NCBI GenBank assembly: GCA_040753015.1
Contig: JBFMHM010000002.1
Location: forward strand, 102,111-166,110
DNA from: Candidatus Omnitrophota bacterium
GTDB lineage: Bacteria > Omnitrophota > Gorgyraeia > Gygaellales > JBFMHM01
Reading direction: 5' to 3'
DNA: 64,000 nucleotides
Positions 42,926-59,421 of the stretch are shown here, in pieces. Numbering within the stretch: position 1 is the stretch's first letter; each line of letters begins with the position of its first letter. The position numbers and the translations under genes were made by a program. Below the pieces are notes generated by a model. It had not been told where the DNA came from and ran no database searches. It worked only from the letters and a program-made list of their open reading frames with translations.

Positions 42926-43561
42926 TCAAGAAAAAATGTGCCGGATTATTTCATCACTTAATGCCTGCCTCGTAACAACCATTTTAATATTCTTAGTACG
43001 ATCTATTATATAAGCAATATGTTTTCTTTTTTTAATCTGTTTTAAATCGTTAGCAACAACTAAATCTGAATTATTTTTTAGTAGATCTTTATAAGAAGAA
43101 TTAATCAGCTCATCTTTATCTTTATTAACTTCTAATTTAAACTGGACTAGAAAAATTTTTGGATCATATTTTTTAATCAACCTGATAATTTTAGGTGTTG
43201 GAATGAGTTTTAAACAAAGATTATTTTTACCAGATTCTATTTTTTGTGCAGAAATTTTTTCAACCCTATAATCGCTTACTGCAGCTAGATGAATTACAGC
43301 ATCATATTTTTTTGTTTTGAGTTCTTGCTCTATTAAAGTAAACAGCTCGTCAAAATATTTAAAACGTTTAATTATAAGATTTGGATTTTTAAGGGTAAAG
43401 CTTTCAGTGACTGGGCCAAGCAATAACGTAACTTTTGCGCCTTGTTTTAGCGCAGTTTTCGTAATAGCAATACCAGTTGCGCCGCTTGAAATATTTGAAA
43501 TTACACGGACTTTGTCAATTGCAACCCATGTTGGGCCGCAAGTTATCAAAATTTTAGGCAT
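42926..43561 (-). CDS. coaB: phosphopantothenate-cysteine ligase (CoaB) as a separate gene
   Basis: It has the CoaB fold ([24 protein letters not shown]). It overlaps the coaC stop by 8 nt. Confidence 0.75.
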
Positions 43562-44129
43562 GCTTAATAATAGTGGATAAAATCAAATCGGCATCTGCCA
43601 TTGCCCCTTTACCAACAGTGCCGCAGGCAAGGCGTGAAATGCGTGGTTCAATAAAAATATATTTTCCGCCTGCTTGCCGGACAGGCAGGGGTATCTTTTT
43701 TAGCGATGCGATATTTTTTTGCATAATCTCGTTTTCCCACATATTTGTATTCATAGCAGGAGCGATTAAAACTTTAGTTTTTTTTGGCAAGGATAAAACT
43801 AATGCCGCTAATAAATTATCGGCAAAACCATAAGAAATTTTTGAGATTATATCTGCTGTGGCTGGGGCAATCACAACTAAATCTGCCCAGTTAGAAAGTT
43901 CAATATGCTGGCAATTAAATTCTGATATGGGTTTAAACATATCAGTGTAAACCGGATTTTGCGTAAGCGACTGAATTGTTAACGGAGTGATAAAATTACA
44001 CGCGTCAGGCGTAAGCACTCCCTTGACATTATAATTTTTGTGCTTTAAAACACTGATTAAATCACACGCCTTATAAGCAGCAATGCTTGCAGTTATTCCA
44101 ATAATGATGTTTTTATTACTAGTAGGCAT
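43554..44129 (-). CDS. coaC: phosphopantothenoylcysteine decarboxylase flavoprotein (CoaC)
   Basis: The flavoprotein N-terminus is IIIGITASIAAYKA. Confidence 0.8.
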   Translation of the reverse strand: MPTSNKNIIIGITASIAAYKACDLISVLKHKNYNVKGVLTPDACNFITPLTIQSLTQNPVYTDMFKPISEFNCQHIELSNWADLVVIAPATADIISKISYGFADNLLAALVLSLPKKTKVLIAPAMNTNMWENEIMQKNIASLKKIPLPVRQAGGKYIFIEPRISRLACGTVGKGAMADADLILSTIIKHA

Positions 44130-44133
44130 ATGT

Positions 44134-44382
44134 TTAAGATGGCTGGGCTATTCTATGTAAAAGCTCAGAAATAAAAGTTTGATACCTTATACCGAGCCGA
44201 TAAGCTTTATGTTTAATGTTTTCTAGGTCTTGCTTATTTACGCGAATATTTAAAACCGCATCTTTCTTCCTTGCAGATATAACACTAATAATTTGTTCGT
44301 ATTCCCGCTTATCCACAGGAACAAAATGCTCAAGATTATCTTCTATCGCCCGCTCTTCTTTTGTTAATTTAATCTTTCTCAT
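44134..44382 (-). CDS. BrnA-like antitoxin (RHH/CopG-like, DUF4415-type)
   Basis: The C-terminal GIRYQTFISELLHRIA resembles the BrnA G.GYQT.IN.ILR.Y motif. It overlaps the upstream toxin by 14 nt. Confidence 0.55.
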   Translation of the reverse strand: MRKIKLTKEERAIEDNLEHFVPVDKREYEQIISVISARKKDAVLNIRVNKQDLENIKHKAYRLGIRYQTFISELLHRIAQPS

Positions 44383-44659
44383 GGTTTCTCCTGTTTTTGT
44401 AAAATTTCGTTAACTTTCTGCTTGGATATATCGTCTTCAAAAATATTATTTCGCCATCTATTACATACGGCACAGCCCACAGATAACCTTTATACTGATA
44501 AATAAGAATTTTCTGATTTTCTCTATTTGGATGCCTACGTATGTCTATTAGCTTTGAAGCAATGATTTCTTCAAACGAAACGCCGCGCGTTTGCTTAAGA
44601 CGCTCGCTCTTTAATTGGCTCCATCTAATATCTTTCATACATTTATTTTGTATATACAA
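44369..44659 (-). CDS. BrnT-like toxin (DUF497, RelE-fold ribonuclease)
   Basis: Conserved elements are W....NE.NQ.KHGVSFEE and RIISAR-like IFLKTIYPSRKLTKFY. The toxin-before-antitoxin order matches BrnTA. Confidence 0.55.
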   Translation of the reverse strand: MYIQNKCMKDIRWSQLKSERLKQTRGVSFEEIIASKLIDIRRHPNRENQKILIYQYKGYLWAVPYVIDGEIIFLKTIYPSRKLTKFYKNRRNHEKD

Positions 44660-44695
44660 TTGTATTATACAAAATAAATAAGTTGTGTCAAGATA

Positions 44696-47600
44696 TTAAT
44701 GATTTAACGCTTCGATTTGGATGAGGCTTAGATCAATGCCGCCAAGGTTAACGGCGCCTTGCGATGGCTGACTTAATGCCTCGGCTGGGCTTTCGCCAGT
44801 GTAAACTCTTGCTCTCTCCTCTAGCGACAATATCGTGCCTGCACGATCGGTTATTTCATCGGAGGAAGCGCCGGCGCGCTGCAATAGCGCCTCGACTGCT
44901 TGATTCCAGTCGGATTGCCTCTTGACTTCTTGTTTTGCCATTATTGAAATAATAACATCTGAAATAAACAATACTATATTACTTATGCCAATAAATCCTA
45001 AAACAATTGGCATCGCAGAAAAAGAAAAACCTAAAGCTATCCCGCCCACCGTTAAATTAGCAAACGGCCCAGCTAATAAAGTAGCTACTTTTTTCCAAGT
45101 TGAAGCTCCCTCATAATTAATATCTGCGCTAGACCAAAGGTTGATCGAATTCACTTTTAATCCAAATAACTTCGCAGTTAAAATATGAGCTGCCTCGTGT
45201 AAAGGCAAAGCAACTACAAAAGCGCTAAACCGTAATAAATTACCCCGCCCGCCCCCCTCTCTTAATAACGCTGCTGTAATTGAACGCGTAGGCTCTCTTC
45301 TATCTACAAAAATAACACCCTTTTTCTTAAAAAAATCATAAAGCTTCTGCTCAGTATCGTAAATCACGCCTAACCTTTCATTATTACTATTTCTATCTTT
45401 ACGAATCGTAGCATTTCTAATTTTATTACCGTTTAAATCGCCATGAAACATTTTTGCGGAAAAGAGATCTGCGTCGGAGAGATCTGCAAAGGAAAGATCT
45501 ACACCACGAAGGTCTGCCTCGGAGAGATTTGCCTTAAAAAGGCTTGCGGTCGAAAGGTCTGCATTGTAAAGGATTGCGCGGGTAAGTCTTGTATTAAAAA
45601 AGCGTGAATTACTAAGGTTTGCTCCGGTAAGGTTTGCATTAAAAAGGTTTGTACGGGAAAGATCTGCGGAGGAAAGATCTGCACCGATAAGATTTACGTA
45701 GCTAAGAATTGCGTTAGTAAGAATTGCACGGGAAAGCTTTGCACCAGAAAGATCTGCGTAGCGAAGCTTTACGCCGGAAAGATCCTTACCAGAAAAATCA
45801 AATTTTGAAAGATCAAGCCTATAAAAAACAGCATTTTTAAAATAAGAAGCTTCGGATAAACTCTTCAAAGCCCTCACAAATTCATCATTAACTACAACTG
45901 TTTGGCCATCTTGAAGAGGCGAGCTTCTAAGATAATCTTGCTTGGCTTGATTAAATTCATCTATTTTTTGTTCTAAAGTTTTACTTGAATCGTTTAAAAT
46001 TTCTGTGAGCTGTTGTAATGTTTCCGCCCAGCCTTCTGGCGAAACGGCTGTAGGCCCGGCAGCTGACGGATCTGCTGGCGGAGTTACATCCGGAGGTGCT
46101 GGTGGCTGTTCATCCTGAGCCTGTCGAAGGACTGGCGCGTCAGCGGCTGGTGCTACAGGCGCAGGAGTTCCAACTTCAGACTCAATTACCTTGCCATCTT
46201 TATCTACTCTTTGCCCTTGCTCGTTAACAAAAATAATACCACGTTCTTGAGTTAAATATCTATATAATCTATCCATATCAAGAGTAACTTCTTTTAAACT
46301 TTTATAGCTTCCTGAATCCAATATCATCGCGTCTTGAATCTTATCTTTATCTAAGTCAGAAAATAACATCCTTGCTCCGGAAAGGTTTGCGTTGGCAAGG
46401 CTTGCGCCGGTAAGGGTTGTACCGCAAAGGTCTGCATTGGAAAGGTTTGCATTAGTAAGGTCTGCGCCAGTAAAATCTGCACCGCGAAAGTCTGCGTAGG
46501 AAAGAACTGCGCCGCGAAGGTCTGCGCCGGAAAGGTCTGCGTTGCGAAGGTCTGCGTAGGGAAGAATTGCGCCGCAAAGGTCTGCGTAGGGAAGAATTGC
46601 GCCGCGAAGGTCTGCGCCGCGAAGGCCTGCGTAGGAAAGAACTGCACCGGAAAGGTTTACGCCGGAAATGTCTGCGTTGCGAAGGTTTGCGTTGCAAAGG
46701 TATGCGTTGCGAAGGTTTAACCTTGAAAGATCTAACCTATAAATAGTACTACCTCTATTATAAAAACATTGTTCTAAACCTTTTATAGCGGTTATAAATT
46801 CAAAATTAACTGCAAGCACCTCACCTTCACTAAGAGGCGAACTTGCAAGAAAATCTTGCTTAGCTTGGTTAAACTCATTTATTTTTTGTTTTAGGGTTTT
46901 ACTAGTATCGCTTAAAATTGCTGTAAGTTGTGTAAGCACACCATCCCAACCTTCTGGCGATACGGCTGTTGCGTCATCTGCAGCTGGCGGATTAGCTGGA
47001 TCCGCTGGCGGAGCTGACGCAGGTGGCTCACCTCGTGGAACCGCAGATGCATCAGCGGTAGGCGCAGCTGCAGCTGAAACAGCACCGTCAATCACATTAC
47101 CATCTTTATCCACAGCTTGCCCTTGCTCGTTAACAAAGATAACACCCCGACTGGTCAGATAATCATACCGCTCTTGTTTAGTTGAATAAACATCATCCAA
47201 TCTTCTCCAAGTCCTAGCATCAATAAATAGTAAAATACCATTAATTTTATCAGTGTCTAAATCACTATAAAACATAACTGTTTGAGAAAGGTCTGGCCCC
47301 ATCTCTTTTTTTCTAGAAATGTATTGCGCGTAAGAAAATATTGCTCCTGATCCCCGACGTGCTATTATTTCAGCATTGCGTCTTAAATACACGTCCTCGG
47401 AAAGATCAAATGGTGCGAAAAGTCTTACACCAGAAATATCCTTTCCAGAAAAATCTAACCTAGAAAGGTCGAGTTGAATACAAATGGCGCTAGCTTGTCT
47501 ATTAAAATACCATGTCCGCTCTAATCTTCTTAAGCCATCCGCAAACGCATCATTAACTTTAAATGTTTGGCTAGATTGAAAAGGAGAGCTTCTAAGATAA

Positions 47601-50600
47601 TCTTGCTTGGCTTGATTAAATTCATCTATTTTTTGTTCTAAAGTTTTACTTGAATCGTTTAAAATTCCTGTGAGCTGTTGTAATGTTTCCGCCCAGCCTT
47701 CTGACGAAACGGCTGTAGCCTCTGCCGCAGGCCTCGCCGTTTCCTGGCGGGCTGGTGACGATGGATCTGCGGGCGGCTCGGCTGGTGGCGGTGCAGGCGC
47801 GTCAGAGGCTGGCGTAGCTAATTTTTCTCTTAAACTAGCAATTAATTGTTCATTATTCGCGCTTTCGCCAGATTCTTTCAGTAAACGAATAAGCTCATTA
47901 ATTACTGCTTGCTGTTGTAATTGCTCTAGAGTAAAACCATTATTAAGAAGCATTAAAATAATTTTAGCAGCCTTATCATCTGTTAGATTCGTTTCGTCTG
48001 CAATAGTCTCTAAAAAATTACCCATTTGTCTATTTACGCTATCCAATAATGCCATATCTATACCTTTTTCTTTTAATAATTGTGCCTGGTTTTGGACAAT
48101 AGCAGTATAGGCGTTGACTTTAAGTAAAGGTTCACTATCAGGAGTTCTTATTGCCATAGCAATAGCATTTGCAAATTCACCTGTTTCTGCACAAACTTGG
48201 ATAATTAAGTCAGAAGCTAAGAGTCTTTTGTAATCGTTACTACTGTCATTGGGAATTTCTTCTGCCGCAGCGCGTGCATTTTTAAGGTTTCTTTCTATTT
48301 TTCGTTTTGGTATTTTTGCTTTTATCTGAACTCTAGCAACAAGAGAATAGGCATTGGTTTTATAAAAAGGCTGGTCCTGATTATCGGGAATTTTTTTTAT
48401 CAAATTAATAATCAATCGCAAAATATCTTCTACTTCATTCATCGGCCTACCTATTTTTGCCTGGGTTTCGGCAATTATAAGAAGAAGGAGCGCTTTCCAA
48501 TATTCACCAGGTGCGAAAGTTCTTTCCGTTAACGTAGAAGCCAATCGCAAAGTATCTTCTACTTCATTCATTGGCCTACCTATTTTTGCCTGGGTTTCGG
48601 CAATAAATGTATAAGCTCTAATTTGGTCATCATAAGTTGCATCTGCATATCTTGTTGGAAGTTTTTCTGCTATATCAAGAGCTTTATTAATGTTTTCGAT
48701 TATTTCTTCTGTTGGCCTACCTGCTTGTGCTTGAGCTTGAGCAATAGAGGTATAGGCTTTAATTTGTGCCCAAGGGTCATAAATGCTTATTTCTTCTACC
48801 ATAATAATAGCCTTGTTAAGACTAGTAGATATTTCATCTTCCGGGCTACCTATTTCGATTTTAACTTGGGCGATAAATGCTTGGACGGCAGCTTGCGATG
48901 CACGATTAAGCGCAGTTGCAGCGATATCGGCTTTATTAATGTTTTCGATTATTTCTTCTGTTGGCCTACCTGCTTGAGCTTGGGCAATGAGTGCATAGGT
49001 CATAGCCTTATCAGGATCATCATCCTCCATCCTTATTACCAGGTTGAGAGCATCATTAAATCTGTTTAACGTTATAAAAGTTTCGATAACAGTGATGGTG
49101 GCTTTTTCTTTTTGGGAAGAATCATCAAATCTTTCTGCTGCTGCGATAGAGGCTAAACGTAAAGCTAAATCTTGCGTATGAATAGTTTTCAAAATTTCTG
49201 GAGTTAATACTACTGGTTCTCTTGCAGGCATTCCTGGATCTGCCGGCGGTTCGTCTAAAGGCGCTTGCGTAGCGGCTGATGCAACTAGCCCAGGAGGAGC
49301 TGGCGCGTCAGGGGCTGGTACTACAGGCGGTGTCGTCGGTTCGTTGCCAAACAAAATTGGAATTCGCGTGGATCTTGGAAAAGTTGGGCTGTCGCCTGTA
49401 CTAGGCGTAAGCCCGCAACTTACTTCAATCGCAGTTTTTGAAACACCTAATTCTCTCATTAAAAAATTAGCCAAAATGCCTTGTAACTGAGAGTGGCCTT
49501 GCAATGCTTTAAGCTGTTCTGTTGCAGCTTGAATAAATGCGGTTTTAATTGATGCGTCTGATTGTTGCGGCTCTGCCGCCTGCCCAGCACTTTGAAGCCT
49601 TGCGTGTTGTTCAGAAAAAAGCGTATGCGCCCGGCCAATAACATAATTAGAAACTCTTACGCCTGCTAACGACCCAGCCAAAACACCAGCCAAACGTTGC
49701 GCCACAAGAGGAACAGCGCTTCCAGCTCCGCCGTTTGGCGCAGTTGGTGAAGCAACACTTACAAAACGTAAAATTGCATCAGGCAGCGCACTTAATGCTT
49801 CTCTTTTTGCTTTTTCTATTTCAAGCATTGTTGCTCCAACTGGCACGCCGATAACTAAAGTTGCAGCCGGCGCAGTATCTGGCGTTTCTACTTCTCCGAT
49901 ATCAACATCCGCAGCAAGTTCAACACCATCTGTCGGTTCAAACCTCACAGCTACTTGAACCTCGGGAATTTCGTCAGTTGCTGGAACTGTGACAGTTTTT
50001 GCATCACGATTTGCTAACTCCACTCTAACTGCTCGCGCTCGTTCTGGAGTTAACTGCTCGAACGTTCTAGGAGCCTGTGGAGTAACGCTAGTTCCACCGG
50101 GTGCCATGCCTACCGGCAGGCAGGCACTAGGATCAGGCTCTGGCCTTGGCCCAGAGTCAACCCATTTTACTTTTTGCCGCATATCAGGGTCAGCTAAAAC
50201 AGTATCTGTTGCATTGGGTGAAACCAAAAACCATTTGCGGCCGCTAATCTCTCCGTCGCAAGCCACAGCGCCTGCTTCAATATCTCTTGCTAAGGCGCAA
50301 TGCCCCAACATCACAACTAAATTATTTTTTTCGCCGGAAAAAAATAAATCTTTAGCTTGTCTGCCAGCATATCTCTGGCAAACTAACGAACCATTATTTT
50401 GATAAATCAACTGGCTATCGCCTGAAACTCTGTCAATTAACTCAAAACTAAAATTTGCATCAGACGGTTTATACAAGCGAATAATCAGCTCTGAATTATC
50501 TTTCTTTAAATATACCTCTATTTTACCGTGTTCATCCTCTAAAGTTTTTCTAATATAAATAGCATTTGGCTCTTCTCTATCCCTAACTTCATCCTGCCTC

Positions 50601-53600
50601 CACTCTAAAGCCTTAAAAATTGCTTCAACTTTCTTTTCTTCAACTTCTTGATAACCGTCAATAGGAATATCGACAAAAAGCTTAGTTGTATTTTGCTCTG
50701 TCTGGTTTGCAAAACTAAATGTTGCGCCTAATTTGCGCAATTCATTTCTAACCCTAAAGTAAGGCTCTAATGCGTGATATTCTTTTCCTTGCATACATAA
50801 ATTACCTAAGTCGCCTTCGCCTGCCTCGAATAAAGCAGTTTTTAACCACTTACGAAGTGGTGCAGAAAAACTTATTTCTAAACGCAAATGATTGCCAAAG
50901 CTAAGCCAACTAACAGTAATTCCGCTATCTGCCAACTCACTTTGCCAACGCTCTATATCATTATTGTCAATTTGTCCAGCCTCTGGTGGTTGGACAAATT
51001 GATCCTGAGCACCGTCGAAGGATCTTAATCTTACGCCAAGCTGAGGCTGGCGATAAACTTCAGCCAATAAGCGGCCTTCTTGATTAAATGCGTGGCGCAT
51101 TGCGGTTTCTTTTTTGGCAAGCGTCAACCACTGGCTAACTAATTGCATTGCAAATCTAATTTGTTGTTTATTTTTATCTGGCTTAGGCACGCTAGTTTTT
51201 AATCTTTGCTTTTCTGCATTCCATTCTCTATCAGGCCTGCAAAAATTAATATCACTAGTTAAGAATGTCTCTGTCCCAGCCATAGCCAAAGCTTCACCTC
51301 TTGTTTCTTCAATAGCCATCCAAGTAATTTCAAGCGCCTCGGTTACAGCTTCTTGGGTAATCTCACTAATTGGCCTTTGGTACAGCTCTTCTAAATTCCT
51401 CATCTGCATTGCTTCAACTTCTGTCATCTCTTGGCCAACAACCCGAGCAACTGCGGGGATAAATTTAAACCTTAAATCTCCGTCCACAACAAAAACCTCA
51501 ATAGCATCACCATCATTCCAAGCATCTCGTTCATATAATCCACTGGCAAATTTAGTTAAATTTTCCTTAAACTTATCCAACACATTAGCAAGCGGCCGCG
51601 CTCCTTGGCCTGCCTCAAACCCAAGCTTGTAAAAATAATCTAGCACTGCCGTCTTATGTTCCGGGCTAACTCTAACCTCAATTGGATAAAACTTATTTCT
51701 TGCATCTTTATAAACCCAATTTTTATAGGGCTTTAGTTTTGCTTCTGCCATTGCCTTAAACATTGCCTCATCCATAAATTTAAACGGAACTATTTTATCA
51801 AGCCGCGCTAAAAATTCCGGACGGTATTTATATTTATGATAAGCTGATATTTGTGCATCTAATTCGTCGTAAAAACGCGTAAGCGCTTCTGAGTCTGTTT
51901 GTGCTGCATCAAGTGCCTTTTTGTATTGCTGGTAAGCGTCTGGCCCACCTGTTTGAGGTGTTAAAAAACGGCCTGTTGCCGCGTCATAAGTTTCTTCAAC
52001 GCCGCCGTTTGAGGTAAAGATAATAATACACTGGCTAAAAGAAACTGTGTTGCCTTTTGAGTCAGTTAAACGCCCATCGTCGGTAAGAGACAATAAAAGC
52101 ATCAATATTTCTTCTTTGTCAACGCGATGCAATTCATCAAATACGATTACACTTTTTGGGTTGCGTTTTACTTGACTGGTCAACCAATTTTCTGAATCAT
52201 CATGCCCAACATATCCGGGCGGTGCACCGATTAATCTCGTGCTAGAATCCATATCAGCCATAGGCACATGAATATAATTATACCCTAACTCGCTAGCTAC
52301 CACCCTTGCTAATTCTGTTTTACCCACACCTGTTGGCCCAGAAAATAAAAAGCTGCCTACAGGTTTATTCGGTCGCTTTAAACCGGATTCAGCACGATAA
52401 ATTGCACTAACCACTAAATCGACCGCCTCATCTTGGCCAACTAAACGGGCTTTAATACGCCCTTTTAAACTTAACAAATCACTAGTCTTTCTCTGGCTAA
52501 CAAGCAAAGAATCAACGCCGCGTTTAATTAAAAATGAGCGCACATCTTCTATTGTCGGGGTAAGCTTTACATCCTGCCTGTCAACACTGCGCCAACGCCT
52601 AATTTCGGCAAGTGATTCTGCTTGTTTTACTGGCTGGCTTCTTCGTTTTGCTGCCTTTATTTTTTCAGCTAAGACACGAGCAATATTACGTTTTTCTTTT
52701 ACCGGTTGTTTTTGTAAACCTATCTCTTTTGCTTTTGCACTATAATGCTGATCGAGAAATTCAGCCAATAACATCTTATGGTCTTCGTCAGCTAAGGCTA
52801 TAGCAAATAACGACAAAGCCTGCTCCATTAATTCAAAAGGCATTAAATCAGTTGTTTCTGGCAAAGCCCCAGTTATCGGCGATATATGCTTTGCATAATA
52901 CGCCCTTCGTAACACAAGCCACATATCTTCAACTTGCCCAGCCTCTGGCGCTTGGGCAAGTTGATCTCGAGTCCCTGCGAGAGATCTTTCTAATAAATCA
53001 ACACGGCTAAACCATTGTTCATAAAGCGGGTCTCTTAACACAGCCTCTGAACTAGTTGATAGAATTAATCTCCCCTTCTGCTCATCTTTAAACGCGCTTA
53101 AGAATTGCCCTAAGTGGAACTCCGCGCCAGTTGGTAAACCATCTCTGCCTTGAGCGCTAATACTAGCTTTTTGAAAACTATCTAAGTCCAAATAAACAAC
53201 CGTGCGTATTCCTTTTTTCTTATCATCGTCGGCAATTGCATCTAAAAGCCTGAGCACAGTTGCCTCAAACTTTCCTGCCAAACTAAATGTAGTTGCAAAA
53301 CTAGAAAACTTTAAACTAAGAACTCTGACATTTTCTTGGCCATTCAATTTTCCCTCACAAGCTAAGCGGCTATATTGCTGGACTAATTGCTCGGTTGCTT
53401 TTTGGTTTTTTGCCCAAAGAAGAGGAAAATTTCTGCGTGCTTGAGCTTGAATTGATAAAACGCTTACCATTGTCTCTGGGTTAATACTTTCTTCGGGAAT
53501 TCTTCCTTGGCTAGAAAACGCCGTCAGATTTACCACCATTTCATTTAATTCTTTTTCTTGCTGTTTTATCTTATCAACTGAAGCTTCATCGGCATCTTCT

Positions 53601-56600
53601 GGAATGGGTAGGGAAATTTTAAGTTTATCATTATTCCAAGCAGCATTAGGCGGAACCTGTGCAACAGGTGTTGGCAAAAGCGCTTGCTTTGCTTCTAAAT
53701 TAGAAGCAGCTAAAATTGCTCTTGTTGTTGGATGAAGCGCCTCTTGCGCTTGTTGCCTAACTACTTCACCTACCGGCTCAGTTAATTTAAAAGTAATTTT
53801 TCCTTCACTATCAGCACTAACTGAAATTTGAGTTCCCTTGGGATATTTTTTTGCAACTAAAATTTCTGCTAATTGCGAACCAATTAAATTATCAATAGCA
53901 CGAGCCATAGGACGCGCGCCATTAACCGCGTCATAGCCTGCCTTAAGAATTACCTCTTTTGCCGCATCATCAAAATTAAGAACATAACCTTGGTTAGCCA
54001 GTTTTTCTTTTAACATATCGAGGATAAAATCGCGGATTTTTTCAATTTCTTTTTTGCGCAAACGCTTAAACACCAAAATTTCACCGATACGGCCTTGCAT
54101 CGAATTTATAAAATAACGATTAATTCTTTTCCTTATTTCATCTTGTATGCTTTCTTCCATAACATCAAGTAACTGACTACGGCTTGCACTACTTAAATCT
54201 TTACCAGCTTCCTCGCTATGCCTATTTACTTGGCTAATTAAGCGGCAAACACCCAGCCTTTCTTCCCTTGCCTTAGACGTCATTACCTTTAATTTTTGAA
54301 TATAATCCCATAGGCCGCCAAACGCCTCTTCGCATTGCCTGCGTTCTTGCGGCAGCAATCCAAATTCATCAAGCCTAGCAAATCTTCCAGCTTCACCTTG
54401 TTTGGGAAATCGATCTGGCACACAATCAGGTTTTTGCGCCCGCAAATATGCCTTTAATGCCGAATCTCTATTTGCAACAAGCGGGCTAATCCAAAATTCC
54501 TCAATATTATCCAAAACATCTTCTAACGTCAGGCGTTCAGGAAGAAAATCTAATTGGACGCTGTTTAATGCCCTGCTAAATACACCGCCCGGTTTAAGCG
54601 TTTCCTCAATAAGTTCAGCCACTTCATTAAACACATCTTTATTATATGCACGAAGCTGAATAGCTGCCTGCTGCAACCTTTGGCGCTTAGCAGCTGCAAC
54701 ACGTCTTCCCATTTCAGGATCCATTGCTTGCAACTCTTTCTGTGGTTCATCTTCAATAGCTACTTCTTTACCAGCTTTTTTGTATTCATCAATTTGCTTT
54801 TCTTTTTCTGTAATTTGACTCTGCAATCTAGTCCTTTCAGCATCGACACTGGCCCTGTAAAAAGCAATCTTAAGCTCATATAATTCGATATATTCACCAA
54901 ACACATCAATAAGTTGCTTAGTGTGTTTAATATGTTCTAAATTTAGCTTAACATTTTGTTCAAGAGAATTCTTGTATTCAGCTTGCTGGCGCTTTAAAAG
55001 CACGAGCAACTGCTCGGCTTTTCTATGCTCGTCGGTAATTTCAACCCTAAACCATGAATAATCACTTGCCGCAAGCTCTGTCTCGTCTTGCGCCTGAGTA
55101 AACTCCTCATCACTCATTAAATCTATTGCATCCATTGCCCGATATGCGTCGTAAATTTCCGGAGTCATGCCTAAATTTGAAGTCATTGCAATTAAGTGAT
55201 TAGTTGCCGATAAAGTTTCTCCTGTTGAACTTTGTGTTGTGCCTGTATCAAATAAATCATATAAATTTTCTAATACATCCGGATGCGCCTTTTCAAGTTC
55301 ATCCAATAAAAGAACACCAATAGGCGAGGCTCGTAAAATTTGCACTAATCGCCCGCCATTTTTATCATAACCAACATAACCTTGCGGTGCGCCCATAAGT
55401 TTTGTTTTAGCAAATTCATCTTGCAGCTCTGCCATATCAATGCGGCCCATTTTGCCGTCAAAAATAAGCTCAGCAATTGCTTTTACAAGCTCGGTTTTTC
55501 TACGCCCGTTGGGCCTGCCAACATAAAAACACCAATTGGTTTATTTGGCTCTTTTTGTCCGTTAACAAATAAACGAATTTTTGCTAAAATGGCATCGACT
55601 ACATGTTCGTGGCCAACATAACGCTTTGCTAAATTTTCTTTAAATCTATCAACGCGCGCTCTAATATCACCGGTTAATAAGCTAACTGTAGTTTGCGCCT
55701 CTTTTGCCAGCGCAGTTAAAACTTCTTCTTCGCTAATTCTTACGGATGGGCCTAAAGTTGTATCTACATCGCTTGCGCCCGCCATTACCATTACCCAATA
55801 ATCCAGGCGGCCAGTTAAAAATTCAACAAGCTCTGGTGTGTTAGCCTGCTCTAACTCGCCAATTAAAGCCAAGGCTCGGCTTCCGGCATAAGCTCTATCT
55901 AAATTACTCCTGTATTCTTGTTTTTTATTTTTATCAACTAAAAGTTTCTGAATTAAATCTATTGCAATTTCCCTTTCTGAAGCTTTAGGCAAGAATTTTT
56001 TAGTATAACCCATAATCCGCTTTAAAAATTCAAACGCATCATCGCTTTCAATTTTTAAATTTAAAAGCTCGTTATGCACGGTTTTAAACCACGGTAACCC
56101 CTCTTCTAAAAGCCGCAAAATTTCATCTGCCTCTTTTTCGAATTCAGGAGAGCTAGATAGCTCGTAACGTTGAGGATACTCCATAATTTGAGATATTTCT
56201 TTCCATTTGTTTCTAGGAAATACCGCCTGAATTGTTTTAGGCTCACCGCCAATAATTACAGGAATTGGGCTTTTAAGAAGCTCATCTAATAACCACTCTA
56301 AGCGCGAGCCAAGCTTAAACTTCAAACTCAAAATTCCCGCGTATTCTTCAGCATCAATATAAAAAGCTAAATTACGGCGCGTGCCTTTTTTTTCTGCATC
56401 GTGATACACCTTGCGCATATTGCTGACAAAAGCGCGAACAACCTTTTCAAAACCATCTGCCTGCAAAAACACTCCGCCGGCTAATAATTTTTTAATATCT
56501 AATTTTAAAATTTCTAACTTTTGTAAAGAAACTGGCAATGGGCTGTCATCAAGGCTTGCTTGATAAGCCAAAGAACGTATTGTCTGCTCTACTTCTCTCG

Positions 56601-59421
56601 GATGGCCGATTAAAATAATATTATTATTACTTGTATTTTTAATTTCATCTAATCTATCTACAAAACCTTGATCTGGCCTTTGGTGTAAACTTAAACTTTG
56701 CGAAGAGCCTTCGAATGTTTCTATCTTGGAAAGATAAGCCATCAAGTTTTCTTCAGTTTCTCCTTCTCTGCCATCGTCTGGATATATAGGAGAATAAAAA
56801 TTACCGCCTACTAGAGGCGCGCCAATCATTGCTGCCATAGCAGCAAAAACATCATCGCCAGAAGAGGCATCACCAAAAAACTTAAAATAAAACCAGCGAA
56901 ATAAATATGCGGCCGGAATTAATAATAAAGGTAACAATAAAGATTTTAATATTGTGGTTTTTGCAGGGCCACTGCCTGGCCTTGGCGATTTTGGACCTTG
57001 ATCATCAGTCTCTGTTTCTGCTGCTTTTTTACGCAATGCGTCCCGTTGTTCTCTAGCGTCTGCGCTATAATCATGATGATGATCAGCATGAACAGTTCCA
57101 TCAGCGTGGCGATGCTGGCCTTCAGGAACACCGTGATGATGTGGATGTCTTGCGCCACTAACGTTACCATCGTGATCGCGGTGAATATGCTTTACAAGCA
57201 TCCTGTTATGTATTCTACCTATCCTAGCCTCTACTTCATTTCTCTTGCCAGCCTTAATTCTAGGCACTCTCGTGCTATAGCCATAACGGGTTTTTTCTAT
57301 TAAGCCTTTTTTAGAAAGTGCACGTTTAATAATTTCCTTTGCTTTATCTTTATCGTTCTCGTCTAACTTTCCTTCACCAATTGCCTGCTCTGCAATTTCA
57401 TCAGCCAACCTCTCAATTACTTCCGGATTATTTGTTCCGTTCTTTCGTAATTTACCATCATTTAAAATATTTAAAAGTCCTCTTGTAATCCAAGTGCGGA
57501 AATTATGCTCCATCGTAAGATCGCTGATATCACTATCTTTATCAGCTTCTTCAACTGACGTATTAATTTCATCTAAGATTTCATTTAACAGTTCCTCATC
57601 GCCTTTATCATCATCTTCATCTTTATCATCTTCATCTTCATAATCATCGCTATTTTTACGGCTATCTTCTATTTGTGCCAACCGCCACATCGGACCACAA
57701 CTCGCTCCTATTGAACCCTCGCTAACATCTACATCTGTATCTTCAGCGATTTTGTTGCCCCTTTTTTGCTCCTCTACTACTCTATTATGCGCTTGTATCC
57801 AATTTAAACCTTGTTTGCGATAATATATTTCGCGTTGTTCGTGCAACAAAACATCAGTATCTAAGGTACTTTGAAAACCAACTATACGCCAAACATTATC
57901 TGTACCTTTAAAATTAATTGCCTGTACGCCATCATCTAAGTTAATTGCCCATCTTTTGAGCACATCAATAATTCTTTGCGCGTCTTGATCCCTAACATTA
58001 TCATTAATCGCAATAATTCGGTTTCCCACATCATCTGTATTAGTTTTAACTGCCCCCAGCTTATCAAGCTGTGTAATACAATATTCAACAATCTCTCGAT
58101 TACTAGCGTTTTGTGATAATTCAGGAACTTTCTTACTTCTTGCCAAAACTCTTAGAATTCTTAAAAGATTTTTTAGATTCTTTACATCAGATACTTCTGC
58201 GCCAATATCTTCTGGTTGCCCAATGCTTACCGTAATTGTAACTGGCACCCTGCCTGCCTCTCCCGCTGTTGCTAGCTGTGTAGGAATTTCTCCTGTTGGC
58301 GCAAAAAGTACACCGCCTGAGGCATAGGTGCGGCGGATTTTATGATTTATCGTAGGGGCGAAACCATGTTTTCGCCCATTAATTATAGGGCGATTACGCG
58401 GAATCGCCCCTACAACATCAACCAATTTGTATTCGCCTTTTGTTGAGTTTAGATAAGATTTGTAGATTTGTTCTGGTTTAAACTTAAGGTTGTTGGTTTT
58501 TTGGTAGGTTTTTATGAATTGCTCTAACTTTTCGCTTTTCGCTTTACTCTTTACGCTTTTTTTGTACCATTGTGCAAAAATGAGTGCTTGATATATTTGT
58601 CTAAGTGGTTCATAGGCTTTGTCTTGGTTTACTCGTTGAGTTAGTTCTGGGAGTATTAGTTGTTTTAGATGAGATTCACAATATTCCTGTAGTTCCTCAG
58701 TTCGTCTGTTCTTCAGTTCGTCAGTTCGTTTGTCATTGGAAATTGGGATTTGGGATTTCTCAAGGTATTCGCTTTCTAGAAGCACCTTGAGCGTTGCTTT
58801 AACTATTGTTATTGAGCTATCTGTCTCATAGACCCTTGCCTCATCTGGCACTATCCAGACACGAAAGGTAGTTGGTACTTTGTAGTTAGTAGTTTGGTTT
58901 TGTTGTTTTGGTCCTAATTTTAAATTTTGAGTTATAGTTTTACCTTTTTCGTTTTGAGTTTTTACTTCCAAAGTTTTGGCTTTAGTAAATACTTTATCCC
59001 AATAGGTTTTAGCATTTTTACCATAACCGGGTAATAATTCAAAGGCTGTGTCTTTCTTAAGCTTTAAATCTAATACTAAGAGCGCTTTACCTAAATCAGT
59101 ATCAGCTATTGTATTGCCGATGATTCTACTTGGGTCATTAGGGTTTAGATTAACCCAAAGATCTTTGTAGTCTATAGATAGGCTAGTAAAGAAATAATCT
59201 AGAAGTTCTTTGGTTTTAAGCTTCTTTTGTTGTTCTGAGAGGTTGCGAGGAAGAAAGTTGAAATTAAAATTAAAACCTGAATTTAGACTAAGCGAAACAA
59301 ACGAGGCGTTTGGGTCATGCACTTTTAGGCTAACAACTTGGCCAAAGCTAATACTCTGGCAAAGAAAGGTAAATGCCAAAAATAGACAAAAAATCCTCTT
59401 TATATGGTTTACTTTAATCAT
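44696..59421 (-). CDS. giant multidomain protein, about 4,900 aa as a single reading frame interrupted by one frameshift near 55.49-55.50 kb
   Basis: ORF 55483..59421 ends ...FMLAGPTGVEKPSL* and ORF 44696..55450 starts MGRIDMAE.. LMGAPQGYVGYD. Restoring one G (GTAGGAAAAACC) gives the contiguous ClpB-D2 sequence [30 protein letters not shown]. The domain content is listed in the findings. Confidence 0.7.
45923..46052. repeat. intragenic direct repeat of ~130 bp, near-identical (3 mismatches) to 47591..47720, with a diverged third copy at ~46845..46975
   Basis: I aligned the two copies by eye (agcttctaagataatcttgcttggcttgattaaattcatctattttttgttctaaagttttacttgaatcgtttaaaat...ccgcccagccttctg.cgaaacggctgtag). 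Each encodes SPEGWAETLQQLT.ILNDSSKTLEQKIDEFNQAKQDYLRSSP. Confidence 0.8.
46340..46760 (-). repeat. pentapeptide-repeat coding block (15-nt periodic tandem units, A(D/N)LxG-type)
   Basis: The protein reads NLRNADISGVNLSGAVLSYAGLRGADLRGAILPYADLCGAILPYADLRNADLSGADLRGAVLSYADFRGADFTGADLTNANLSNADLCG. Two further blocks lie at ~45430..45860 and ~47270..47520. Confidence 0.8.
55493..55503 (-). other. single-nucleotide frameshift site inside the Walker A codons (observed GTAGAAAAACC; GTAGGAAAAACC needed for GPTGVGKT)
   Basis: The downstream frame is open through the site and encodes ...[29 protein letters not shown]. The upstream frame terminates 3 codons later. Confidence 0.7.

Follow-up and report, generated by a model that had tools for sequence, protein, structure and literature searches.

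Genomic setting of the cassette

What do the two small, overlapping genes between a giant gene and coaC on this Candidatus Omnitrophota contig encode, and does their position beside so large a neighbor matter? Within the stretch of DNA that was analyzed (64,000 nt, here called the window), the original prediction had described these genes as a BrnT/BrnA-like type II toxin-antitoxin (TA) pair in toxin-first order with a 14-nt overlap. The arrangement was confirmed: the two open reading frames (ORFs) occupy 44369–44659 and 44134–44382, share 44369–44382, and are indeed wedged between the giant gene and coaC. Both run on the minus strand, a detail that the original prediction had left unstated. 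The features of the locus, listed in the direction of transcription, are as follows.

44686..44691, minus strand: -35 hexamer TTGACA, a sigma-70 match; DNA similarity among cassettes begins here, at TCTTGAC
44660..44672: second palindrome, TTGTATAATACAA, also perfect, adjoining the first palindrome and overlapping the -10 box
44664..44669, minus strand: -10 hexamer TATAAT, a sigma-70 match; most relatives have TACAAT here
44648..44659: first palindrome, TTGTATATACAA, 12 bp and perfect, just downstream of the -10 box and covering the expected transcription start; presumed operator of the ribbon-helix-helix (RHH) antitoxin
44369–44638, minus strand: toxin gene, 89 aa, with a predicted BrnT-type (RelE-superfamily) fold and without a Shine-Dalgarno sequence
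44388..44392, minus strand: Shine-Dalgarno sequence AGGAG of the antitoxin gene, inside the 3′ end of the toxin gene, with a 5-nt spacer to the ATG
44134–44382, minus strand: antitoxin gene, 82 aa, with a predicted C-terminal RHH (PF12441, 25.8 bits; NikA-like, 22.7 bits)

The upstream neighbor is a gene of 3584 codons with ClpB-like AAA_2 domains, pentapeptide repeats and an M50-like C-terminus, whose TAA stop (44698–44696) lies 4 nt from the -35 box. The downstream neighbor starts at ATG 44129, 4 nt past the antitoxin stop; its match to Pfam Flavoprotein fits coaC, and after it come genes for DFP/CoaB, MreB, MreC, a PBP2-type transpeptidase and RodA. Because the gap is only 4 nt and no terminator was seen between the antitoxin stop and the coaC ATG, transcripts from the cassette promoter must enter coaC. 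At the cassette ends a ∼15-kb block with a GC content of 0.38–0.46, which contains the 3584-aa gene and a 1312-aa ORF (no Pfam match) and is flanked by hflX-miaA and by coaC-coaB-mreBCD-PBP2-rodA. GC content was 0.332 for the cassette, 0.333 for the backbone and 0.415 for the giant gene. The 64-kb window contains no tRNA gene, and no integrase was found among the flanking genes scanned (a minority of the ORFs in the window). An Rfam search of 43000–46000 gave one chance-level match alone; the interval thus contains neither a known RNA antitoxin nor a known regulatory RNA. As to links with defense or phages, PADLOC returned no credible match, PHROGs matches were limited to families of unknown function, phage genomes gave no match, and BFVD yielded nothing at E ≤ 0.001.

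Toxin homology and predicted fold

NCBI already lists proteins identical to the two products, encoded on a 260-kb contig, under the names “MAG: toxin [Candidatus Omnitrophota bacterium]” (P0001) and “MAG: antitoxin” (P0121). Relatives of the toxin are numerous, with 1040 at E ≤ 0.001 in a 90%-clustered database and a clade of 1609 cluster representatives in a 50%-clustered library. The profile comparison proposed as a check in the original prediction (PF04365 for the toxin, PF14384 for the antitoxin) fell short for both proteins. Against PF04365 (BrnT_toxin), the toxin scored 15.7 bits where the cut-off is 34.5 (E = 0.018), and the 89-aa form gave nothing at E ≤ 0.01. NCBIfam contained no BrnT match for the toxin, and none of the best 120 of its 1040 relatives carried a precomputed Pfam domain. 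Searches of PDB sequences were similarly sparse, with nothing found by a profile of the close family and 7vd7 alone, at E = 0.35, by a profile of the wide family.

Intermediate sequences and predicted structure are more informative. Of 120 diverse clade representatives, 74 matched PF04365 at E ≤ 0.01 (best E = 1.4e-10) and 16 matched DUF4258. Alignment of the wider clade to canonical “BrnT family toxin” sequences with hhalign gave a probability of 92.3% (E = 5.6e-7), over the N-terminal 34 columns alone; the close family by itself reached 45.8% against canonical BrnT. The AlphaFold2 model of the toxin (pLDDT 90.6) has a β-strand at 3–5, helices at 8–18 and 22–26, strands at 29–35, 42–49, 52–61 and 64–67, and a helix at 74–87, and so displays the first strand, two short helices and four-stranded antiparallel sheet of the BrnT-type fold. 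Foldseek against the PDB returned Brucella BrnT (3u97) as the sole match at E ≤ 0.001, and 3u97 and 7vd7 (a BrnT-family toxin from Salmonella) were the two clear leaders among structural matches. Despite the sub-threshold scores of direct profile searches, the structural match and the intermediate sequences together place the toxin, as a divergent member, in the BrnT/DUF497 branch of the RelE superfamily.

Altered active site

The toxin had been credited with a DUF497-like core of the form WD..KNxxNxxKHGVSFEE. Taken literally, this pattern does not occur: the actual sequence, RWSQLKSERLKQTRGVSFEE, reads RW-SQL-K-SERLKQ-TR-GVSFEE, with no Asp after the Trp, Asn replaced by Leu and KH replaced by TR. 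An ungapped N-terminal alignment of Brucella BrnT with the toxin gives the following correspondences.

BrnT W5: toxin W6
BrnT D6: toxin S7 (variable)
BrnT E7: toxin Q8 (variable)
BrnT K9: toxin K10 (invariant)
BrnT K16: toxin T17
BrnT H17: toxin R18
BrnT G18: toxin G19
BrnT F21: toxin F22

Residues D6, E7, K9, R41 and E78 have been tied to the RNase activity of BrnT (PMC5086665); of the first three, K9 alone is kept (as K10). A Lys-His dyad is required for toxicity in RelS of Mycobacterium tuberculosis (PMC13284704) and is essential in Aave_1720 of A. citrulli (K17 and H18; PMC10714953), and the same requirement is described for K16/H17 of BrnT in PMC13284704. At position 18 of the window's toxin, where the dyad would place His, 34 of 35 close relatives have Arg; so do 117 of 120 clade representatives, with His in 2. 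Arg at this position is a clade-wide feature and not decay. Ten residues are each shared by at least 90% of the clade (K10, L14, R18, F22, Q42, P57, L67, K68, T69 and R74), and six of these (K10, R18, Q42, K68, T69 and R74) were nearly invariant across ∼1600 cluster representatives.

RNA cleavage that blocks translation is still the most likely function of the toxin, because RelE needs no His: the E. coli enzyme has no catalytic His and relies on Lys, Arg and Tyr when it acts on the ribosome. Precedent within the BrnT fold adds to this, since RelS cuts 16S rRNA and not free mRNA (PMC13284704). With Thr-Arg in place of the essential Lys-His, however, the catalytic chemistry or the target may differ from those of BrnT, for example through a RelE-like mechanism relying on basic residues alone.

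Antitoxin

The antitoxin is 82 aa long and ends, exactly as had been proposed, in a GxxYQTxIxxxLH motif (G64-IR-YQT-F-I-SEL-LH76). Its best profile was PF12441.14 (CopG_antitoxin, which corresponds to COG5304), whose score of 25.8 bits narrowly misses the cut-off of 28 (E = 1.9e-5), followed by a NikA-like RHH at 22.7 bits, and a precomputed PF12441.15 match is present on the identical NCBI protein (P0121) and on many relatives. PF14384 (BrnA_antitoxin) gave nothing at E ≤ 1, and the NCBIfam BrnA model NF047399 scored 14.8 bits against a threshold of 60 (E = 0.023). Relatives of the antitoxin number 444; they bear precomputed PF12441 or PF21983, and PF14384 was found in 0 of the best 120 of the 444. 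A profile of the antitoxin family found nothing relevant among PDB sequences.

The predicted secondary structure comprises helices at 8–16, 25–40, 50–63 and 67–79, with the VLNIRVN strand of the RHH lying within 42–49 and the last two helices completing the RHH unit. The monomer model from which it was read has low confidence (pLDDT 64), which is unsurprising for an RHH protein that is an obligate dimer and has an arm for binding the toxin, and fits an N-terminal neutralizing region followed by a C-terminal RHH; the two N-terminal helices would presumably bind the toxin. Conservation is concentrated in the RHH, where L44, R47, Y67, Q68 and E73 are invariant in 79 of 79 sequences and N45, N49 and T69 are present in 75, 77 and 68 of the 79, respectively. 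Strand-helix-helix order and the YQT motif, beside a toxin of the DUF497 type, are the marks of CopG_antitoxin, and all are found here. The profile and motif comparisons suggest that the antitoxin is of the PF12441/COG5304 type of RHH proteins, sister to BrnA (PF14384). The proposed BrnT/BrnA-like identity of the pair thus holds in part: the toxin is of the BrnT kind, as indicated by its structural matches (3u97 and 7vd7) and by hhalign, whereas the antitoxin appears to belong to PF12441/COG5304 and not to BrnA. Across the toxin clade, partners of both types occur, PF12441-like and PF14384-like. On a Calothrix plasmid, the gene after a toxin with 51% identity encodes a PF14384-like protein (21.8 bits), and the partner on Piscirickettsia salmonis plasmids is PF12441-like.

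Promoter, start codon and presumed operator

Upstream of the toxin gene lies a sigma-70 promoter that matches the consensus at 12 of 12 positions on the minus strand (TTGACA, a 16-nt spacer and TATAAT). In a DNA alignment of five cassettes, an insertion of 5 nt behind the -35 box of the window's copy brings the perfect TATAAT into register. Both palindromes are enclosed by a larger inverted repeat (44641–44679), of which the 14-nt arms (44641–44654 and 44666–44679) are 100% complementary.

The longest toxin ORF (44369–44659) starts at TTG 44659–44657 and would encode the 96 aa originally assigned to the toxin; translation from ATG 44638 gives 89 aa. That TTG is the first triplet of the TTGTATATACAA palindrome and is located downstream of the -10 box, and the ATG is the start used in the NCBI protein and in the great majority of homologues. 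The 96-aa start is thus almost certainly wrong on the comparative evidence, with the toxin beginning at ATG 44638. No Shine-Dalgarno sequence precedes this ATG; the antitoxin gene has one, with a GGAG block that is conserved in the alignment of five cassettes. Gene callers often place the toxin start at the operator TTG, which leaves spurious “LYIQ” N-termini in databases.

A 16-mer, TACAATTGTATATACA, found once in the window (44649–44664), is present upstream of the toxin gene in nearly every locus. It was exact in 29 of 79 loci and had at most two mismatches in 54, compared with 0 of 1580 control windows drawn from these loci at up to three mismatches; its 11-mer core, TTGTATATACA, was exact in 60 of 79 loci and within one mismatch in 75. 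In ∼40 loci TTGAC lies 22–23 nt upstream of the 16-mer, a spacing which implies that TACAAT, the first six bases of the 16-mer, is the usual -10 box, with the palindrome TTGTATATACAA just after it. The distance from TACAAT to the palindrome shifts by one base in some loci, and this fits separate roles for the two elements. The conservation of the core (exact in 60 of 79 loci) suggests that TTGTATATACAA is presumably the operator of the antitoxin. The 16-mer is kept on the plasmids of the gammaproteobacterium P. salmonis and is absent where the partner antitoxin is BrnA-like. Furthermore, four antitoxins with an N45H substitution all have the operator variant TACATTTGTATATACA, which hints at covariation between antitoxin and operator, though these loci may simply be related.

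Distribution, selection and mobility

With one genome scanned for each GTDB species, at least 539 loci were found. The best 80 of these were mostly from metagenome-assembled genomes (MAGs) of Omnitrophota, some of them labeled Planctomycetia, with a minority from Melainabacteria, Elusimicrobia, Nitrospirota and FCPU426. In 82 of 83 loci the antitoxin gene comes directly after the toxin gene and in the same orientation, with a gene overlap of 4 nt in 35 and of 14 nt in 17. The complete genome of Ca. Velamenicoccus archaeovorus carries the same pair (89 and 82 aa, 14-nt overlap) in a different and unrelated context. Homologues of the giant gene, coaC or coaB were found nearby in 0 of 80 other cassette loci, whose neighbors are unrelated, and a co-oriented ORF within 20 nt downstream was present in just 4 of 79. 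Small co-transcribed genes that stay together as a pair while their surroundings differ from locus to locus are characteristic of a type II TA system.

Similarity among the five aligned cassettes runs from TCTTGAC, at the -35 box, to the antitoxin stop, and the flanks are unrelated. Bounded in this way, the predicted mobile unit measures ∼560 bp (44693–44134). In P. salmonis, the plasmid-borne relatives adjoin an integrase and IS elements. The best relatives of coaC on metagenome contigs were at most 47% identical and had neither cassette nor giant gene, at a distance too great for reconstruction of the empty site.

Median dN/dS (Nei–Gojobori) was 0.18 for the toxin and 0.15 for the antitoxin, rough values given that dS is near saturation, and these point to purifying selection on both genes. 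At two loci (L034 and L042) a nonsense-mutated toxin lies beside an intact antitoxin; such independent nonsense mutations strike the toxin and never the antitoxin, the pattern of decay expected of a harmful toxin. An alternative genetic code as the source of the in-frame stops in L034 and L042 was rejected, since the neighboring ORFs are long when read with code 11 and the codon in question is CAG in a close relative.

Proposed function and alternative explanations

Taken together, these results make it very probable that the pair is a divergent, horizontally mobile and presumably autoregulated type II TA cassette of ∼560 bp, with a BrnT-fold toxin and an RHH antitoxin. In the mechanism that we infer, the strong sigma-70 promoter would have the toxin gene transcribed first and the antitoxin gene after it. 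Lack of a ribosome-binding site for the toxin, the good site (AGGAG) of the antitoxin and the 14-nt overlap of its gene with the toxin end would leave the antitoxin in excess. The 89-aa toxin would arrest growth, most likely by cutting RNA involved in translation, and the 82-aa antitoxin would probably cover it with its N-terminal helices. An RHH dimer of the antitoxin would probably bind TTGTATATACAA as well as the neighboring palindrome that overlaps the -10 box, thereby shutting off its own promoter.

It is improbable that the cassette is instead a canonical BrnT/BrnA system like that of Brucella abortus (a ribosome-independent RNase with a Lys-His active site, in a 2:2 complex with a BrnA-family antitoxin). 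Toxin-first order, BrnT as the best structural match, gapless alignment of the GVSFEE helix and W...K spacing with BrnT, a C-terminal RHH like that of BrnA and the weak NCBIfam BrnA match (E = 0.023) are all as such a system would have them, but PF04365 stays below threshold, PF14384 is absent at E ≤ 1, and the antitoxin's relatives (best 120) are PF12441 or NikA-like and never PF14384. Moreover, D6 and E7 are not retained, and K16/H17 have become T17/R18, with Arg in nearly all clade representatives. Loss of the essential His could also mean that the toxin is catalytically dead and that the pair serves as a small autoregulated transcription-factor complex, possibly controlling coaC-coaB-mreB, into which transcripts would run given an antitoxin stop 4 nt before the coaC ATG and no terminator. 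We regard this as very unlikely: near-invariance of Arg18, K10, Q42, K68, T69 and R74 speaks for an active site and not a relic, independent nonsense mutations have hit the toxin and never the antitoxin, and RelE works without a catalytic His. Control of coaC is further opposed by the different downstream neighbors of other loci, where a closely following co-oriented ORF is rare.

The position of the cassette had itself been read as a sign of a stabilizing role or of a hotspot junction. A tie to the giant gene, in which the cassette stabilizes the higher-GC block of the 3584-aa and 1312-aa genes or marks an integration hotspot, has little chance of being correct. The cassette does lie exactly at the edge of that block, between the housekeeping genes hflX-miaA and coaBC-mreBCD, and an RHH antitoxin is listed near giant genes of Omnitrophota (10.64898/2026.06.07.730766); that antitoxin, however, is a single one among the 560 flanking genes of the 2026 giant-protein preprint. 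Against the tie also stand the 80 other cassette loci, which are without homologues of the giant gene or coaBC, a cassette GC content equal to that of the backbone, the lack of a tRNA gene in the window, and the lack of an integrase among the flanking genes scanned.

Returning to the mobile TA cassette, it is conceivable, if rather doubtful, that it represents a large uncharacterized branch of the BrnT fold (at least 1600 clusters at 50% identity) in which x-Arg replaces Lys-His and the active site or target differs (for instance, ribosome-dependent cleavage or cleavage of rRNA), that the near-universal operator TTGTATATACAA permits cross-regulation between genomes and even phyla, and that the promoter also feeds coaC-coaB-mreB.

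Relation to known systems and significance

Neither the label nor the class is new. The proteins are named toxin and antitoxin in NCBI, and a TA class formed by an operon of COG2929/DUF497 with an RHH protein of COG5304 or COG3514 goes back to a 2009 prediction of Makarova, Wolf and Koonin, who described the COG2929(DUF497)–COG5304 operon as mobile and found on plasmids and phages (PMC2701414). That class was defined on canonical DUF497, whereas the clade represented in the window is an outlier mostly missed by current profiles. In common with BrnT/BrnA of B. abortus (3u97), the cassette has a toxin-first operon, a W-x3-K-x8-G-x2-F-E framework at the N-terminus of the toxin and a C-terminal RHH in the antitoxin. 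It differs in having Thr17-Arg18, Ser and Gln where BrnT has Lys16-His17, Asp6 and Glu7, a C-terminal helix (74–87) and FLKT-YPSRK where BrnT has IRIISARKA, a toxin that falls below both Pfam and NCBIfam thresholds, unlike BrnT, and an antitoxin of PF12441/COG5304 and not PF14384/COG3514. BrnA and the BrnTA complex repress their own promoter (PMC10714953); autoregulation is thus demonstrated for BrnTA and would apply to the window's cassette by analogy. The Salmonella Typhimurium system (7vd7) has the canonical FEWD...KHGV motif that is absent from the window's toxin, and its antitoxin has no detectable sequence similarity to that of the window. RelS–RelI (PMC13284704) and Aave_1720–1719 (PMC10714953) likewise have BrnT-fold toxins in toxin-first operons, but RelS and Aave_1720 retain the essential Lys-His dyad that the window's toxin is without, and RelI is an HTH protein whereas the antitoxin here is predicted to be an RHH protein. 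Together, RelS and Aave_1720 show that the BrnT fold tolerates different targets.

For the host genome little is at stake, as this is one more chromosomal TA cassette, and the value of the locus is modest, residing in the size of an under-annotated clade, an altered active site and an unusually conserved operator. A clade without the His found essential in three experimental studies offers a natural test of the flexibility of the BrnT/RelE active site. The 12-bp palindrome, conserved across phyla, provides with its antitoxin a ready, if predicted, protein–DNA pair for studies of RHH specificity. Lastly, there is an annotation gap, in that a very large BrnT-fold clade falls below Pfam and NCBIfam thresholds; RefSeq gives the copies carried by P. 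salmonis plasmids the name “hypothetical protein.”

Toxin start codon and upstream region

Many database entries for related toxins carry an N-terminal extension reading "LYIQ", "YIQ" or "IYNCIY" (proteins P0011, P0075, P0245, P0247, P0248 and P0272; the window equivalent lies at 44639-44659 on the minus strand). These extensions arise when the operator, a conserved palindrome near the -10 box upstream of the toxin gene (TTGTATATACAA / TACAATTGTATATAC), is read as protein with TTG as the start codon. The TTG-start extension is a recurrent gene-calling artefact, and is also the source of the 96-aa toxin in the original prediction (read from TTG at 44659; ATG at 44638 gives 89 aa).

Asn45 in the RHH strand of the antitoxin is replaced by His in only four proteins (cassette loci L023, L047, L064 and L065), all four of which have TACATTTGTATATACA upstream, with T instead of A at motif position 6. 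The pairing of His45 with TACATTTGTATATACA may represent protein–DNA covariation or just reflect shared ancestry.

A subgroup of cassettes possesses an additional conserved block ∼40 nt upstream of the -35 box (loci L012, L014, L016, L017, L020-L022, L030, L037, L038, L052, L057, L059, L061, L062, L068-L070 and L079), with the form GTAGAGRGGAGG-N6-8-ATGGA/ACGGA-AAAAAGA-CTTGACAA. In some copies the ATG gives an extended ORF running through the promoter; other copies have ACG, followed by a stop. At another locus, L005, an insertion of ∼60 nt (GACCCTTCGACGCACTTTGTTTGCTCAGGGTCATGG...) lies between the operator and the toxin start codon (L005:3895-4000). The cassette is 81% identical when the insertion is set aside, and the insertion may be a small repeat element.

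Toxin homologues with in-frame stops

Codon 43 is an in-frame stop in two toxin homologues (L034:4001-4261, TAA; L042:4001-4261, TAG), directly 3′ of the invariant Gln42. Both retain a conserved toxin sequence beyond the stop and an intact antitoxin beside it. The two loci are not each other's nearest relatives, as shown by L018, which is 86% identical to L042 and has CAG at codon 43. The stops are either independent nonsense mutations or cases of tolerated read-through.

Genomic context of the cassettes

Within the window, the region upstream of the cassette forms a block of higher GC (0.38–0.46, versus 0.33 for the backbone), flanked by hflX-miaA and coaC-coaB-mreBCD-PBP2-rodA, that looks like an inserted island:

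44696-59421: higher-GC block
within the block, minus strand: giant gene of 3584 aa, with ClpB-like domains (AAA_2 and D2-small), numerous pentapeptide repeats and a C terminus resembling M50
within the block, minus strand: ORF of 1312 aa without a Pfam match

The minus strand carries all real-looking ORFs of ≥120 aa in the window (1-64000), and almost all 1-kb windows have a negative GC skew; thus, gene orientation is strongly uniform over the entire 64 kb.

In another Omnitrophota MAG (L015:838-2685), mreB-mreC lies directly downstream of the cassette, whose -35 box begins 7 nt past the preceding ORF's stop codon. This placement resembles the tight wedging of the window cassette upstream of coaC-coaB-mreB. 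A related pair, ∼49% identical to that of the window, occurs on Piscirickettsia salmonis plasmids (L127, NZ_CP038879.1 2279-2822, and 34 others). It encodes proteins of 92 and 90 aa with an 8-nt overlap, both annotated as "hypothetical protein" in RefSeq, and is flanked by an integrase and IS30/IS6 transposases, with two copies of GTATATACA upstream.
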